Shown here: in pieces, positions 47,877 through 52,707 of the stretch
Numbering within the stretch: position 1 is the first letter of the stretch
Layout of the letters: each line of letters opens with the position of its first letter
From: Candidatus Limnocylindria bacterium
Lineage (GTDB): Bacteria > Chloroflexota > Limnocylindria > Limnocylindrales > CSP1-4
Direction: 5' to 3'
Assembly: GCA_035525825.1 (NCBI GenBank)
Contig: DATLDP010000033.1
Span: forward strand, 1 to 59,025
Length of the DNA stretch: 59,025 bases
Position numbers and translations under genes: made by a program
The notes under the pieces: generated by a model
What the model was told of the DNA's origin: nothing
The model's database searches: none
The model's input: only the letters and a program-made list of their open reading frames with translations

Positions 47877-48449
47877 GTGACCGCCGAGCCTCGCGACGCG
47901 ACCATCGCCTATCCCGGCGGGCTTCGAGCGCGCTGGCGCTGGGGCGGCTCCGGTCAGGCTGCGGCCGTGTTCGCGCTTTCCGAGGTCGGCGGCAATCTCC
48001 TCGATCTCGGGCCGGAGGTCTCCCCGGCGCCGGACGAGCTGTGTCGCGCGGAGCTCCGGGTGGACGGGCCCGGCGGCGCGTGGGCGGTTCGGCTGGCATC
48101 AACGCTCAACGACGAGCCGACGGCGCAGCTCTGGGACACCGCGGGTCAGCTCGTCGTGAAGTACGGCTTCCACACCTTCGGGCTCGATGCCCGATCCGGC
48201 GCGCTGCGCTGGTCGCATCGGTCGGCAACGCCGGTGCTCGCGGTCTTCGCTTCCTCAAGGCTCCAGCACGTGATCATCCAGGCGGAGCTGGAGACGTTCG
48301 CCGTCGAGGCCGACGGTGGCGTGGCCTGGCGGATCGCGCATTCGGACGTGGTCACGGAGGCGGCGATGGTCGGCGGGCGCCTCGTCCTCACCGCGTACGG
48401 TGGCGGCGTCAACGCGGTCGACCCGGCCACGGGCCGCGGCGAGGGCTGA
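47877..48449 (+). CDS. Hypothetical protein with PQQ/BamB-like propeller repeats
   Basis: GLDARSGALRW, AVEADGGVAW, AVDPATG. Confidence 0.7.
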   Translation: MTAEPRDATIAYPGGLRARWRWGGSGQAAAVFALSEVGGNLLDLGPEVSPAPDELCRAELRVDGPGGAWAVRLASTLNDEPTAQLWDTAGQLVVKYGFHTFGLDARSGALRWSHRSATPVLAVFASSRLQHVIIQAELETFAVEADGGVAWRIAHSDVVTEAAMVGGRLVLTAYGGGVNAVDPATGRGEG

Positions 48450-48576
48450 CCGACCGAACCGAGGGCGGCCGTGCGACTCGGCGCGCGACCCGGCGCGGGG
48501 CTGGCGCGCAGCCTCACGATGTGGATGCGTCGTGGACAAGCCACCCGTCCCGGGTGAATCTCGTGGACAGGTGGCA

Positions 48577-48605
48577 TTGACCCGCCCGGTCGACCCACCT
48601 AATGT
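48577..48605 (+). promoter_or_regulatory. Near-consensus sigma70/sigmaA promoter
   Basis: TTGACC-N17-TAATGT in a 300-bp intergenic gap; the next CDS has its own -10 element 130 nt downstream. Confidence 0.7.
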
Positions 48606-48610
48606 CTGAA

Positions 48611-48695
48611 CCAGCCCGGAGGGGCTGAACGACACTAACGGCGGCGATCGCATCAACGCCCACGTGTTGCGTAGGTTCCTCCGGGCCCTTTGATT
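48611..48695 (+). ncRNA. Candidate small structured non-coding RNA (family not recognised)
   Basis: Begins just after the promoter. GCCCGGAGG/CCUCCGGGC closing stem, inner CGACAC/GUGUUG and GGCG/CGCC stems, then CUUUGAUU. Confidence 0.45.
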
Positions 48696-48748: not shown

Positions 48749-49675
48749 GTGGCTCCCCTGATCCTTGCTGCCGCGGGCGGGCTCGCCCTCGGCATCGCGT
48801 CCGCGATCCTGCGCGGCTTCGGCCCGCGCTACCGCGTCGGCCGGCTGCTCGCGGTCGTACCGAGGGTGACCGTGGCCGAGGCGCTCGAGCTCGCGAACGC
48901 CGGCGAGCCGCGCTACGTCCGGATCGAGGGCCGCATCGACAGCGACGCCGAGTTCGAGGACCAGGACCACCGGCCCCTCGTCTATCGCCGGACGTCCATG
49001 CACTGGCGGCGCTCGCCGGGCCGGGGCGGGTGGACGCCCCTGGAGGACCCGACGATCGAGTCGATGGGGTTCACCCTGAACGAAGGCCTTGAGGACATCG
49101 CGATCGACGCCCAGGCGCTCGGGGACGGGCTGGTCGTCATCGCCCGGGAGAGCACGGGGCTCGTCCGCGATCTCGGCGAGCGTGCCCCGGAGGGCGTCCC
49201 GGCGGACGCCGAGCTGCGGCTCCGGATCGAGTACCTCTCGAGCATCGATCACGCCACCGTGCTCGGCGTCCCGGCTCGCGGCGCCGATGGCGTCCCCGCG
49301 ATGGGTCCCGGCCTCGGCCGCCCGCTGATCGTGACCACGCTCGAGAACGAGGAGGCGATGCGGGTGCTGACGGGTGGCGCGATCGGGCGCTCCCGGGCCG
49401 CGGTGGCGGGCCTCGCAATCGGCGCCATCCTCATCGCTGCGGCGGCGATCTGGTTCCTTCTCGAGGCGCTGCTCGGCGGCGGCGTCGCGATCGCGCTGGC
49501 GGCCACGCCGGAGCCGACGGTCCGGCCGGGCTCGGACATTCGCGGCGGTGGCGCCGCAGGCTTCCTCGGCACGCCCCTGCTCGCCGTCGGGGCCGTCCTG
49601 GCCATCGGGGTCATCTCCGTCGTGGCCACCCTCGCCTACGTCCGGCTGACCGGCGGGCCGCGCGGAGGTCGCTGA
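48749..49675 (+). CDS. Hypothetical membrane protein with GIDE-like soluble domain
   Basis: N-terminal TM; 'YVRIEGRI...PLVYRR...FTLNEG..IAID' beta-rich region; two C-terminal TM helices. Confidence 0.65.
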   Translation: MAPLILAAAGGLALGIASAILRGFGPRYRVGRLLAVVPRVTVAEALELANAGEPRYVRIEGRIDSDAEFEDQDHRPLVYRRTSMHWRRSPGRGGWTPLEDPTIESMGFTLNEGLEDIAIDAQALGDGLVVIARESTGLVRDLGERAPEGVPADAELRLRIEYLSSIDHATVLGVPARGADGVPAMGPGLGRPLIVTTLENEEAMRVLTGGAIGRSRAAVAGLAIGAILIAAAAIWFLLEALLGGGVAIALAATPEPTVRPGSDIRGGGAAGFLGTPLLAVGAVLAIGVISVVATLAYVRLTGGPRGGR

Positions 49676-49836
49676 CCCGAGAGAGGCGTCAACCCGATCC
49701 ACGGCCGATCGCGGCGCGCGCCCGCAACGGCCTCGAGCCGGCCTCCGTGGAGGGCAGTGGTACTTCTCTCCCATTGGCAAGAAATGTGGGGTACGTGAAC
49801 CTACCCTCGAAGTTCACGAATCCTCCCGGGGGCATC

Positions 49837-52707
49837 TTGTCGAAGCTGGACCTGCACCACCCGCGACCGCTCGATGCGACGCTGACGGTCACGCGCGCCG
49901 CAGAGGTGCTCGGCGTTCACGCCAACACGGTCCGCGCCTGGAGCGACGCCGGGCGCCTCCGCTACTACCGGATCAACCCCCGCGGCGACCGCCGCTACCG
50001 CCTGAGCGACCTCCAGCGCTTCCTCACCGGGCTCGATGCATCCGGGCAGTCATCTGCCGGCGACGACGCCAAGGCCGGCAACCCGCGCCGGCGCGGCGGT
50101 ACGGTTCCGCTGGAGGAACACCAGGCGATGCTCGAGCTCGTCGGGGAGCTGTCGGCCCTCAGCGGCTCGGCCATCCGCGAGGCGCTCGCCAACCCCGGCG
50201 CCCCGCTGAACGCGGCCACGCGGGCCATCCGGGAAAGCCTGCGCGTCGCCCACGCCTCCGCGTGGCGCCTCGAGGAGGGCCGCCTCTCCCCCGTCGCGGT
50301 CGCCGGCGGCGGCCCCGGGCTCGTCCGGCTGCCGGGCTCGTTCGGCGTCCTCGGCGAAGCACTTGGCGCTCCGGGAACCGTGGTCGAGGCCGACCCCGCC
50401 ACGCATCTGTCCGCCACCAACCAGGCGGGCCACGAGGTCGCCGCCGCGATCCCCGGCGACGTGGAGTCGTGGGGCGTGCTGCTCTTGCTCCGCCGGGCGA
50501 CCGAGCCCTTGACCGACCAGGAGCGTGACCTGATCCGCGTTGGTGCCATGGCCCTCGGCAACATCATCCGGGCCTCGTCCTCGGCCGCGGAGGTCGCCCA
50601 TCAGCTCCAGCGGGCCGATGCCCTCCGACGCGTGACCAGCGACATCGGCAGCCGCCTGGACCTGGACGAGATCCTCGACCGGCTCGTCGACCACGCTGCC
50701 GTGCTGTTCGGCGCCGACCGGGTGGCGGCCTTCCTGTTCGAGGAGGACGGCCGGCGGCGGATGGCCGCGTCGCGAGGACTCTCGCCGTCGTGGATCACGG
50801 CAGTGACCTCCGTGGAGGGCAACACCCTGGGAACCGCGGCGATCACCGCCCGCCGGCCGATGTTCTCCGTCCACTACGCAGACGACCCCAGGGTCGGGAA
50901 CCTTCGCGCGGCCGTCATCCAGGAGGGTTTTGACACGGCCTGCGTCGCGCCGCTTTTCGATGCCGGCGCCGAGGAGCCGCTCGGCATCCTCGGCGTCTAT
51001 CACGACCAGCCCCACGCCTGGTCGATCGACGAGCTGGACACCATGGCCGCGCTCGCCACGCAGGCCACGGTCGGGATCAGGGCGGCCGGGAACTACGCCC
51101 AGCTGGCGACCTGGGCAGCGCAGCTCCAGTCGATCCAGGCCCTGGGCACCCGCCTCAACCGCCTGACGAGCGTCAAGGAGATCGGCGATGCGATCGCCAC
51201 GGAGCTCCGACAGCTGATCGACTACCACAACGTCCGGGTCTATCGGCTCGATGGCGACGACCTCGTCCCCGTGGCGATGCAGGGCCGCGTCGGGGAATAC
51301 CTCGATGAGACGCCCGAATTGCTGAAGATCAAGTTCGGTGTCGGGATCACGGGCTGGGTCGCCGAGCACCGGACCGCACAGCGCCTCGACAACGCCGCCA
51401 CGGACACGCGGGCCCAGACGATCGCCGGGACCGAGGACGACCTCGACGAGTCGATGCTCCTCGCGCCGATGCTGTTCGAGGACGAGGTCCTCGGCGTCCT
51501 CGTGCTCTCGAAGCTCGGGCTGCGGCAGTTCCGCGCCGACGACCTCCGGCTGCTGGAGATCTACGCCAGCTTCGCGGCCCAGGCGATGGCCAATGCTGAC
51601 GCGACCCAGCAGCTTCGGGCCCAGTCGGCGGCGCTCGAGCAGAAGGTCCGCGGACAGCGCGAGCTCCTTGGCATCACCGAATCGATCCTGACGACCTATG
51701 ACCCGCCTGTCCTGCTCGGCACGATCGCGGACAGGCTCGGCGAGCTGATCGGGTCGGACAATGTCGCGATCGAGCTCCTGGACAAGGACCAGGGCGTGCT
51801 GACGCCGGTGATCGCGCGAGGAATCGACGCGGACTACTACCTCCGCCCCTGGCAGGCGGGCGAGACGGGGCTCGCGACGTGGGTCCTCGAGCACAACGAG
51901 CCGGTCCGGGTGGTCGACGAGTTCGACGACGAGCGCGTTGCCCAGCCACCCAGTGGCCCGATCCACGGCAGCCTCATCTGCGTCCCCCTCCGCGATCGCG
52001 ATGGGGCCATCGGCGTGCTGACCCTCGAGCGGGTCGGCGAGGGCCGGGTGTTCAGCGAGGACGAGTTCGAGCTGACCCAGCTGTTCGCGGCCCAGGCCTC
52101 GATCGCCCTCCAGAACGCCGAGGTCCACCTCGCGGTCCGGCGGCGCGCCCAGACGGACGTCCTCACCGGGCTGCTCAACCACGGCACGTTCGGCCAGCAG
52201 CTGGACGCCCTCATCGCAGCGGGGGAGGAGTTCAGCCTCGTGATGCTGGACCTGGACCGGTTCAAGCCGGTCAACGACGGCATGGGCCATCAGGCCGGCG
52301 ACCTGCTGCTTCGCCAGGTCGCCGACGCGATCGTCGCCGCGAGCCGCGACAGCGATCGCGTGTATCGCTACGGAGGCGATGAATTCGCGGTGCTGCTGCC
52401 GCGGACGGACGGCGACCAGGTCGGCGTGATTGCCGAGCGCGTCCGGGCGGCCGTCAAGGGGGTGGTGGGCCCCGGTTCCGACTGGCGCGGCCGCGCTCGC
52501 TCGCTCGAGGCGTCCGCCGGCACCGCCTCCTTCCCGGCCGATGGGCAGCGCGCCGAGGAGGTCCTCCTCGCGGCGGACCGCGCGCTGTTCGTGGCCAAGC
52601 GATCCGGCGGTGGCCGCGTTGCCAGCTCGGCCGAGGGCCTGGCCCTCGTCGGGGAGTTCACCCTCCAGACCCCGACGCCGATCGACCCGCTCGCGGGCGC
52701 CGCCTGA
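49837..52707 (+). CDS. Diguanylate cyclase with N-terminal BldC/MerR-like HTH and four GAF domains
   Basis: LTVTRAAEVLGVHANTVRAWSDAG...GDRRY; GAF repeats; DLDRFKPVND.GH..GD; RDSD I-site; RYGGDEF. Start uncertain. Confidence 0.9.
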   Translation: MSKLDLHHPRPLDATLTVTRAAEVLGVHANTVRAWSDAGRLRYYRINPRGDRRYRLSDLQRFLTGLDASGQSSAGDDAKAGNPRRRGGTVPLEEHQAMLELVGELSALSGSAIREALANPGAPLNAATRAIRESLRVAHASAWRLEEGRLSPVAVAGGGPGLVRLPGSFGVLGEALGAPGTVVEADPATHLSATNQAGHEVAAAIPGDVESWGVLLLLRRATEPLTDQERDLIRVGAMALGNIIRASSSAAEVAHQLQRADALRRVTSDIGSRLDLDEILDRLVDHAAVLFGADRVAAFLFEEDGRRRMAASRGLSPSWITAVTSVEGNTLGTAAITARRPMFSVHYADDPRVGNLRAAVIQEGFDTACVAPLFDAGAEEPLGILGVYHDQPHAWSIDELDTMAALATQATVGIRAAGNYAQLATWAAQLQSIQALGTRLNRLTSVKEIGDAIATELRQLIDYHNVRVYRLDGDDLVPVAMQGRVGEYLDETPELLKIKFGVGITGWVAEHRTAQRLDNAATDTRAQTIAGTEDDLDESMLLAPMLFEDEVLGVLVLSKLGLRQFRADDLRLLEIYASFAAQAMANADATQQLRAQSAALEQKVRGQRELLGITESILTTYDPPVLLGTIADRLGELIGSDNVAIELLDKDQGVLTPVIARGIDADYYLRPWQAGETGLATWVLEHNEPVRVVDEFDDERVAQPPSGPIHGSLICVPLRDRDGAIGVLTLERVGEGRVFSEDEFELTQLFAAQASIALQNAEVHLAVRRRAQTDVLTGLLNHGTFGQQLDALIAAGEEFSLVMLDLDRFKPVNDGMGHQAGDLLLRQVADAIVAASRDSDRVYRYGGDEFAVLLPRTDGDQVGVIAERVRAAVKGVVGPGSDWRGRARSLEASAGTASFPADGQRAEEVLLAADRALFVAKRSGGGRVASSAEGLALVGEFTLQTPTPIDPLAGAA

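Follow-up and report, generated by a model that had tools for sequence, protein, structure and literature searches.

A predicted diguanylate cyclase of Limnocylindria with an N-terminal MerR/BldC-type winged-helix head and a conserved upstream element

In this work, we analyzed a gene on a 59,025-nt stretch of DNA (the window; contig DATLDP010000033.1, assembly GCA_035525825.1) from an uncultured soil/freshwater Chloroflexota bacterium of the class Limnocylindria. The gene is intact, occupies 49837-52707 on the forward strand with a TTG start and a TGA stop, and encodes 956 aa comprising a helix-turn-helix (HTH) head, a variable linker, four GAF folds and a complete GGDEF domain (HTH_17 - GAFx4 - GGDEF). 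The sequence evidence suggested, at a probability of about 0.5, that the product is a dimeric cyclase, regulated by its GAF domains and inhibited by its product, with two tethered heads that would bind DNA, most likely at its own promoter. The architecture itself, an HTH head followed by GAF domains and an intact GGDEF with an RxxD I-site, had been read from the letters in the original prediction, and domain searches, profile comparison and structural modeling all bore it out.

The open reading frame spans 49747-52707 (+), and a longer product beginning at GTG 49747 was ruled out, as the ortholog starts align to 49837. The TTG at 49837 is the supported start because orthologs begin there (in a 15-sequence alignment and at 80 orthologous loci) and conserved non-coding DNA lies just upstream; the start assumed at the outset thus stands. 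A GGGGG stretch (49828-49832) is located 4 nt ahead of the TTG. Full-length alignment of the protein to 80 genome loci gave 53-82% identity. The gene is single-copy in 155 of the 301 Limnocylindria class genomes, and in these 155 genomes the head is always fused inside a frame of ~950-1400 aa. In a second family (f4), the head is 56-65% identical and the whole protein only 36-38%. Around the genes of the first family (f1), synteny extends to a 308-aa membrane protein upstream (75 of 80 loci) and to a LysM-polysaccharide deacetylase downstream (72 of 80); neither was found near the ortholog in the four f4 loci checked, so the synteny is regarded as inherited rather than functional, and a functional tie to the neighboring genes was rejected. 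A literature search retrieved no publication on the HTH-GGDEF architecture. The design is conserved and is uncharacterized in the literature found, and both halves are already known to annotation, whose pipelines give each a name.

The head (aa 15-68, 49879-50040, +) was recognized as a MerR/BldC/excisionase-type winged HTH by Pfam, TIGR01764, a PDB profile search, AF2 and Foldseek. Pfam HTH_17 (PF12728) matched aa 16-64 at 38.3 bits in the whole protein (cut-off 27) and at 42.6 bits (E 7e-11) in the 96-aa N-terminal piece alone, and NCBIfam TIGR01764 'excise' scored 33.2 bits against a cut-off of 28.8, so that both curated thresholds for HTH_17/excisionase membership were passed. A profile search of the PDB placed BldC at the top (E 1.2e-9). 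The predicted order is a strand (15-17), two helices (18-25 and 29-37), a wing (44-55) and a last helix (56-68). The AF2 model of aa 1-80 reached pLDDT 80-92 over aa 11-60, a confidence obtained only after a more diverse alignment was supplied, whereas the head had low confidence in the full-length model (pLDDT 28-67). All of the top 50 Foldseek matches in the PDB were DNA-binding MerR-type winged HTH domains, and BldC superposed at 1.2-1.5 Å over 51-53 residues. These results agree with the proposed excisionase/BldC/MerR-type head and predict a MerR-superfamily winged HTH; an N-terminal segment lacking the HTH fold, which would have counted against the original prediction, was not what the AF2 and Foldseek comparison returned. 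We consider it likely that the head binds DNA. It is followed by a variable low-complexity linker (aa 69-95, 50041-50121, +), for which ortholog identity is 0.23, length varies and pLDDT in the full-length model is <50; these ~30 residues probably serve as a flexible tether for the head.

The GGDEF diguanylate cyclase domain covers aa 771-925 (52147-52611, +), the same span being given by Pfam and by a whole-genome search, and it exceeded the family cut-offs of both PF00990 (122.1 bits vs 23.8) and TIGR00254 (121.5 bits vs 37.4). As originally proposed, the GGDEF motif is intact (aa 846-850, nt 52372-52386, +) and is preceded five residues upstream by an RxxD I-site, RDSD (aa 837-840, nt 52345-52356, +). 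Residues D805, D807, N813, R837, D840, G846-F850 and K921, which include the Asp and Asn residues contacting Mg and GTP, were kept in 78 of 78 aligned sequences apart from a single gap at K921; at D822, 65 of the sequences have Asp and 13 have Asn. The PDB relatives of this region are active diguanylate cyclases. On sequence grounds, the protein is very likely an active GAF-regulated cyclase. A conserved C-terminal tail (aa 926-956, …GEFTLQTPTPIDPL…; 52612-52704, +) follows with an identity of 0.60, its aa 941-956 having pLDDT <50 in the full-length AF2 model.

Of the four GAF-like domains expected between head and enzyme, three were detected by Pfam and the first by profile alignment (hhalign) and the AF2 model only. 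This divergent first domain (aa ~96-258, 50122-50610, +) had no Pfam match and an ortholog identity of only 0.38, but hhalign aligned it to GAF-B over its full length (78.6% probability, E 1.7e-5, 129 columns), and its alpha/beta order in the AF2 model is GAF-like (pLDDT 75-92). GAF-A (aa ~275-415, 50659-51081, +; Pfam GAF/GAF_2, E about 1e-15), GAF-B (aa ~445-585, 51169-51591, +; GAF/GAF_2, E about 1e-13) and GAF-C (aa ~622-759, 51700-52113, +; GAF, E 1e-17) exceeded the cut-off of the PF01590 clan with 49-65 bits each, and GAF-B is the most conserved sensor (identity 0.79). GAF-C continues through a long modeled helix (741-772) into the GGDEF domain, and aa 634-930 match the GAF-GGDEF protein Dcsbis (4zmu). 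The full-length AF2 model has a mean pLDDT of 81 with long helices between domains, and its best structural matches were IsPadC (E 8e-27), Dcsbis and tandem-GAF dimers.

These features are consistent with a cytoplasmic one-component signaling enzyme with two outputs. By analogy with the solved relatives IsPadC, Dcsbis, tandem-GAF PDE2/5 and CyaB2, the protein would form a parallel homodimer. A small ligand might bind the GAF domains, GAF-B being the best conserved of them, and the signal would be relayed through the helical linkers so that the two GTP-loaded GGDEF domains meet and c-di-GMP is made, which could then feed back through the I-site. The conservation of the heads suggests that the tethered pair would bind DNA, and the most likely target would be the promoter of the gene itself, with its uniquely conserved element of ~80 bp; in that case the enzyme would autoregulate and would sit on DNA while signaling. 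The functional ideas put forward at the outset, namely nucleoid- or promoter-localized synthesis, DNA-gated activity and a c-di-GMP-sensing transcription factor, are plausible. They receive indirect support from the high conservation of the head, from an upstream element peculiar to this gene, and from PilZ receptors being missing here and uncommon among Limnocylindria.

The upstream element (49759-49836, +) is promoter-like, gene-specific and kept in 76 of 79 orthologs. It consists of a GGTAC up-box starting at 49759, a -35-like TTGGCA (49774-49779) inside ATTGGCAAGAA-TGTG, a weak -10-like GAACCT (49797-49802), a leader box TTCACGAATCCTCC (49813-49826) and the GGGGG stretch ahead of the start codon, all on the forward strand; the putative promoter has a spacer of 16-17 bp. 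The window's GAACCT is a poor -10 match, most orthologs having TAGGCT. Both the -35 box and the leader box are unique in the 2.3-Mb genome, and in 8 near-complete genomes the -35 box has one match per genome, which adjoins this gene in 7 of the 8. The second family possesses its own conserved block upstream. Several other readings of the element were tried and rejected. As to a structured RNA leader or riboswitch, Rfam yielded nothing above threshold ('skipping-rope' at 19.4 bits vs a gathering score of 36.7), and RNAalifold returned no consensus structure for 76 orthologous leaders. As to a sigma-54 promoter, suggested by the TGGCA in the -35 box, the element has no GC at -12, and no Sigma54_DBD was detected in 6 genomes. 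No dyad or repeat stood out clearly in the element, and BldC-like 9-bp direct repeats were not supported (self-similarity at shift 9, z = 2.5, not significant with 19 shifts tested). Variation in the block tracks phylogeny, and its co-evolution with the head is inseparable from descent. That the gene's own promoter is among the targets of the head is offered tentatively, at odds well short of even; the block could also be a mere promoter and leader read by another factor.

Such an ordinary promoter is what one would expect if the head docks the cyclase at other promoters through a short motif, where the protein would act as a transcription factor or co-activator or would feed c-di-GMP to a DNA-bound effector. 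The E. coli proteins DgcM, PdeR and the MerR-like MlrA provide a precedent for local signaling at a MerR-like factor (PMC5052742), and strong conservation of the head would fit a conserved multi-site target. In addition, the host genome lacks PilZ receptors, and of 60 high-quality class genomes only 7 have them, so that effectors of another type must exist. Against this stands the fact that the sole conserved cis-element found is single-copy and located at the gene itself: no regulon sharing the promoter boxes was found in the host genome and the 8 genomes above. Moreover, the nearby genes include no partner effector, and the two families do not share a conserved neighborhood. We regard a wider set of target promoters as unlikely.

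A stronger version of own-promoter binding would be a 'trigger cyclase', in which the DNA-bound enzyme is also its own c-di-GMP receptor, promoter occupancy setting the geometry of the GGDEF pair and c-di-GMP at the I-site altering DNA binding. We hold this to be a rather improbable extension. If true, DNA would be an allosteric input to the GGDEF pair, and the protein would be a self-contained bistable switch in a lineage largely without PilZ receptors.

The head is the most conserved module of the protein, with an identity to orthologs of 0.86 compared with 0.65 for the GGDEF domain, and of 0.84 in the 50 most distant f1 orthologs. This level, which includes the recognition helix, seems beyond the needs of non-specific binding and, together with the existence of a gene-specific conserved element, makes low-specificity nucleoid anchoring very unlikely. 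In such anchoring c-di-GMP would be made at the chromosome, or the enzyme would be sequestered there, as suggested by BldC and RacA, which are among the closest folds and whose binding sites are numerous and loosely defined (PMC5859096). With 10 Arg vs 4 acidic residues in aa 15-68, the head is strongly basic, and its closest out-of-class relatives are stand-alone proteins of 69-106 aa, the size of BldC, both of which would suit an anchor. True stand-alone relatives are only 44-52% identical and belong mostly to other Chloroflexota classes.

A still smaller chance is left to the view that the head has lost DNA binding and works as an intramolecular or protein-protein module, for instance by capping the first GAF or recruiting a partner. 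In BldC, Arg30 contacts a base and His46 the minor groove (PMC5859096), and the alignment places A34 and D51 at these positions; the head is also joined to a degenerate first GAF. However, T31, W35, R52 and R53 correspond to the BldC phosphate and wing contacts T27, W31, R47 and R48; T31, W35 and the wing Arg pair are invariant among orthologs, R33 adjoins the lost Arg position, and all structural neighbors among the top 50 Foldseek matches are DNA binders. HTH_17 domains are not known to serve in any role but DNA binding. Finally, an assembly or gene-calling error joining two genes, for which numerous short 'stand-alone' HTH matches in metagenomes might speak, was refuted, since those matches are fragments of this same gene (70-90% identical, several named 'partial') rather than stand-alone copies of the head, and the fusion is unbroken, without internal stops, in 80 genome loci and 155 class genomes.

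How c-di-GMP signals stay specific among many cyclases is a standing question, to which 'local signaling' is the leading answer, supported mostly by protein-protein complexes in E. coli. The conserved design described here could link second-messenger synthesis directly to DNA. A cyclase carrying its own DNA-binding domain, if that is what the protein is, would be a natural minimal test case: a single recombinant protein and a DNA fragment of 80 bp would suffice to measure its binding to DNA, its catalysis and its product feedback. Such a cyclase would further be a synthase-side counterpart of the phosphodiesterase PdeL and a pointer to how c-di-GMP is read in PilZ-poor Chloroflexota. If the head binds its own promoter only, the more modest outcome would be an autoregulated cyclase.

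Among known systems, the solved structure closest to the head is that of BldC of Streptomyces (6ama, 6amk), at 33-35% identity and with the same beta-alpha-alpha-wing-alpha topology; its T, W and wing Arg-Arg contacts are kept here. Yet BldC is a stand-alone protein of 68 residues, whereas the head continues into another 890 residues (155 of the 155 class genomes that have it), and its score against NCBIfam HTH_BldC (NF033787) was 27.1 bits, below the cut-off of 77, which places it outside the BldC family. BldC assembles head-to-tail through E16, R22 and G44 (PMC5859096), to which R20, G26 and R49 correspond here. Because Arg30, His46 and these interface residues are not kept, the BldC binding mode cannot be transferred to the head, and the earlier step from oligomerization of BldC-type domains on DNA to oligomerization of this head finds no support in the sequence.

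Nor is the protein a classical MerR regulator. The MerR_1 match (PF13411) covers only profile positions 2-46 of 69; classical MerR proteins continue from the winged HTH into a long coiled-coil dimerization helix and an effector domain, in place of which a disordered linker follows here, and their promoters have 19-20-bp spacers, unlike the shorter putative spacer of this gene. BrlR (5xbt), found among the Foldseek matches of the head, is a MerR-type factor that binds c-di-GMP, but it has no GGDEF domain, whereas a canonical one is present here. Dcsbis/PA2771 (4zmu) and IsPadC (5llw), which led the structural matches to the full-length model and also matched directly in sequence, share the order of sensor, helical linker and GGDEF and form parallel dimers; neither has a DNA-binding domain or four tandem GAFs. 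PucR/CdaR-type regulators such as MabR (PMC11617747) combine a GGDEF-like module with an HTH, but theirs are a degenerate GGDEF_2 and a C-terminal HTH_30, as opposed to the canonical GGDEF and N-terminal HTH here.

The closest functional parallels come from E. coli. In the pairing of DgcM (YdaM) with MlrA, an active diguanylate cyclase and a MerR-type DNA-binding domain act in physical contact at a promoter, and the present protein could, by analogy, be a single-chain form of it. DgcM and MlrA are separate proteins, however; the sensors of DgcM are PAS rather than GAF, and MlrA is a dimer of the classical MerR kind that carries a C-terminal domain. The likeness drawn here is one of arrangement. 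PdeL (YahA), a trigger phosphodiesterase with a LuxR-type HTH and an EAL domain, binds its own promoter, and c-di-GMP modulates this autoregulation (PMC5052742). The protein described here, known from sequence only, shares with PdeL the trigger-enzyme architecture of an N-terminal HTH and an intact c-di-GMP-metabolizing domain in one chain. It differs in having a GGDEF synthase, working in the opposite direction to the EAL hydrolase, a MerR/BldC-type winged helix rather than a LuxR-type HTH, and four GAF sensors between head and enzyme. Should the head bind its own promoter, the protein would be the GGDEF counterpart of this HTH-EAL enzyme.

Our analyses demonstrated the domain order of the putative DNA-binding multi-GAF diguanylate cyclase encoded at 49837-52707 on the forward strand, its intact active and inhibitory sites, and both the DNA-binding fold and the selective constraint of its N-terminal head. 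The gene occupies a single long forward-strand ORF (49747..52707), and the predicted start at TTG 49837 was correct: in a 15-sequence alignment and in 80 orthologous genome loci, every sequence starts at the corresponding position with the pattern M/L/V-(A/S/P)-K, GGGGG lies 4 bases 5' of the TTG, and the stretch 49747-49837 is conserved at the DNA level, not at the protein level. The product comprises 956 amino acids. Pfam annotation identified HTH_17 at residues 16-64 (38.3 bits against a cut-off of 27, or 42.6 bits when scanned as a 96-residue N-terminal piece), three GAF domains at about residues 275-415 (GAF-A), 445-585 (GAF-B) and 622-759 (GAF-C), and a GGDEF domain at residues 771-925 (122 bits; 121.5 for NCBIfam TIGR00254). 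An intact GGDEF domain with an RxxD I-site had been predicted, and was found: the motif is located at 846-850 with RDSD five residues upstream, and D805, D807, N813, R837, D840, G846-F850 and K921 are invariant in the query and 77 orthologs, with one gap at K921. The D822 position is Asp in 65 of these sequences and Asn in 13. The nearest solved sequences are active cyclases, among them the GAF-GGDEF enzyme Dcsbis, matched over residues 634-930.

The original prediction counted four GAF-like domains. At the fold level this is right, since the profile of residues 96-258, to which 74 of the 78 aligned sequences contributed, aligns with the GAF-B profile from one end to the other (hhalign 78.6 %, E 1.7e-5), and the same region has a GAF-like helix-strand order in the AlphaFold2 model (pLDDT 75-92); Pfam, however, detects only three, with no match in residues 96-258, and the first domain is degenerate. 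Its alignments with GAF-A and GAF-C were co-linear but weak. The full-length model (37-sequence alignment, mean pLDDT 81.4) also contains long linker helices at 227-271, 397-442, 567-619 and 741-772. An ortholog subgroup of ∼1140 residues (metagenomic proteins P0003-P0024) carries one extra, fifth GAF domain before GAF-C; it resembles GAF-C and looks like a tandem duplication of it.

The head is the most constrained module of the protein. Measured as identity to the query across 77 orthologs, it (residues 15-64) reached 0.86, and 0.84 when only the 50 most distant orthologs were counted, followed by GAF-B (0.79), GGDEF (0.65), GAF-C (0.64), GAF-A (0.60), the first GAF (0.38) and the linker (0.23). 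Orthologs from a second family of the class share 56-65 % identity with the query head but just 36-38 % over the whole protein. The assignment of this segment to the excisionase/BldC/MerR type was borne out, as HTH_17 and NCBIfam TIGR01764 ('excise', 33.2 against 28.8) both exceeded their cut-offs and the head model matched exclusively MerR-superfamily DNA-binding winged helices in Foldseek. The head was poor in the full-length model (pLDDT 28-67), while residues 11-60 reached 80-92 in a remodelling with a more diverse alignment, to which three more distant HTH_17 proteins of the same genome were added; the modelled order is a strand (15-17), two helices (18-25 and 29-37), a wing (44-55) and a helix (56-68).

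In a PDB profile search with the first 80 residues, BldC ranked top (6ama, E 1.2e-9; 6amk, 1.8e-9), followed by a B12-binding MerR-like protein, mycobacteriophage Xis gp37 and MerR regulators, and BldC superposed on the head model with an rmsd of 1.2-1.5 A over 51-53 residues at 33-35 % identity (Foldseek). Published BldC contacts are T27, W31, R47 and R48, the base-reading R30 and the groove-reading H46, and its head-to-tail interface residues are E16, R22 and G44 (PMC5859096). Transferred by alignment, the first four correspond to the invariant T31, W35, R52 and R53 of the head, but R30 becomes A34 (adjoined by the invariant R33), H46 becomes D51, and the interface residues become R20, G26 and R49. 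The head, though BldC-like in fold and descent, is outside the BldC family (HTH_BldC 27.1, far under its NCBIfam cut-off of 77), and the oligomerisation on DNA that had been carried over from BldC cannot be assumed.

At E ≤ 0.001, 2179 proteins matched in a protein search. Among the best 120, which were 71-100 % identical and by NCBI names belonged to Chloroflexota, Candidatus Limnocylindrales, most had HTH_17, about eight N-truncated entries lacked it, and the JGI name for relatives was 'diguanylate cyclase (GGDEF)-like protein/excisionase family DNA binding protein'. The gene is distributed class-wide: in a whole-genome survey, a head match (E ≤ 1e-15) occurred in 155 of 301 class genomes, including 97 of 154 high-quality genomes, and in 39 of 57 genera, with one copy in almost all positive genomes and nearly always within an open frame of ∼950-1400 residues. 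Two scanned second-family orthologs had the same HTH_17-GAF-GGDEF order. The nearest head relatives beyond the class are encoded alone, in ORFs of 69-106 residues (44-52 % identical), and share the signature ...NT(V/L)RRWS...RGDRR(Y/F)..., which suggests that fusion of a small BldC-like gene to a GAF-GGDEF cyclase took place in an ancestor of the class. Separately, five metagenomic proteins (P0242, P0250, P0319, P0338 and P0243) contain 3-8 tandem HTH_17/MerR-type heads per chain. Their appearance is that of BldC-like domains arrayed covalently, an arrangement that would fit direct-repeat binding.

Ortholog comparison revealed a conserved upstream element (49759-49836, forward strand): 76 of 79 orthologs share fixed boxes within the ∼80-95 bases that precede the start codon. 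From the 5' end, these are GG(G/T)AC(C/T)(A/T)TCG; C(T/C)ATTGGCAAGAA(C/A)TGTG(A/G)G, with a -35-like TTGGCA inside; a -10-like TAGGCT 16-17 bases after TTGGCA, then about 12 variable bases; and (A/G)(C/G)TTCACA(T/A)(T/A)TCCTCC. The window's own -10-like hexamer, GAACCT, is weak. In the 2.3-Mb assembly, ATTGGCAAGAA is unique to this site and TTCACNNNTCCTCC has one additional, unrelated occurrence on another contig. With up to two mismatches, the -35 box was found exactly once in each of eight near-complete family genomes, directly upstream of the studied gene in seven, and the reversed control gave zero matches. At the equivalent place, the second family carries a conserved block of its own. 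A sigma-54 promoter was ruled out because these genomes lack rpoN, and a sub-threshold Rfam skipping-rope match (49743-49812; 19.4 bits against a gathering score of 36.7) was judged to be chance, since 76 aligned leaders had no consensus fold. A 9-bp self-similarity of the element (z = 2.5, 19 shifts tested), which recalls the 9-bp repeats of BldC, provides no more than a lead. An inverted repeat, GGGTA-N8-TACCC (49789-49806), overlaps the -10-like region here and is not conserved in orthologs. Farther upstream, 48510-48620 contains three TGTGGAT/CGTGGACA sites and then a TTGACC-17-TAATGT promoter; the cyclase promoter holds the loosely similar ATGTGGGG.

Most loci of the host's family (f1) share the order HAD hydrolase (-), 190-residue PQQ-like protein (+), 308-residue membrane protein (+) and studied gene, followed by a LysM-polysaccharide deacetylase (+, ATG 52797) and an ABC transporter (-). 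None of these neighbours, the 308-residue protein included, was detected near the ortholog in four second-family loci checked, and they therefore carry no functional weight. The 190-residue protein (47877-48449, forward; weak PQQ_2/BamB-like match) was matched in 67 of 80 loci and is 66-88 % identical in the 25 listed, more conserved there than the cyclase. The 308-residue protein (48749-49675, forward), which has hydrophobic segments at both termini and no match in Pfam, lies directly upstream of the studied gene in 75 of 80 f1 loci.

The host genome, 80 % complete, encodes 10 GGDEF domains scoring above the Pfam threshold and a further weak match, only two EAL domains, and no detected PilZ; of 60 high-quality genomes of the class, only 7 carry PilZ, although GGDEF domains number about 10 per genome. 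A second HTH_17 fusion, located on another contig (C52, L005:2862-7076, reverse strand), accounts for one of these EAL domains; it is a protein of 1404 residues ordered HTH_17-GAFx3-GGDEF(RxxD)-GAF-GGDTF-EAL, in which RxxD is intact in the first GGDEF, GGDTF is a degenerate GGDEF, and the head is 40 % identical to the studied one.

By analogy with the solved relatives IsPadC, Dcsbis, PDE2/5 and CyaB2, the cyclase would form a parallel dimer, GAF ligand binding may be relayed along the long linker helices to the GGDEF pair, and the product would inhibit at RxxD. The conservation pattern suggests that both heads, on their flexible tethers, bind DNA, the most likely predicted target being the single-copy element in the promoter of the gene itself. 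Both halves are already labelled by annotation pipelines and none of the parts is of a new kind; for experiments on local c-di-GMP signalling the protein is a good and cheap target, with no surprise in kind. This architecture was not found in a full-text literature search, and the nearest functional precedents are PdeL, an HTH-EAL enzyme with c-di-GMP-dependent autoregulation, and the DgcM/MlrA pair (PMC5052742).
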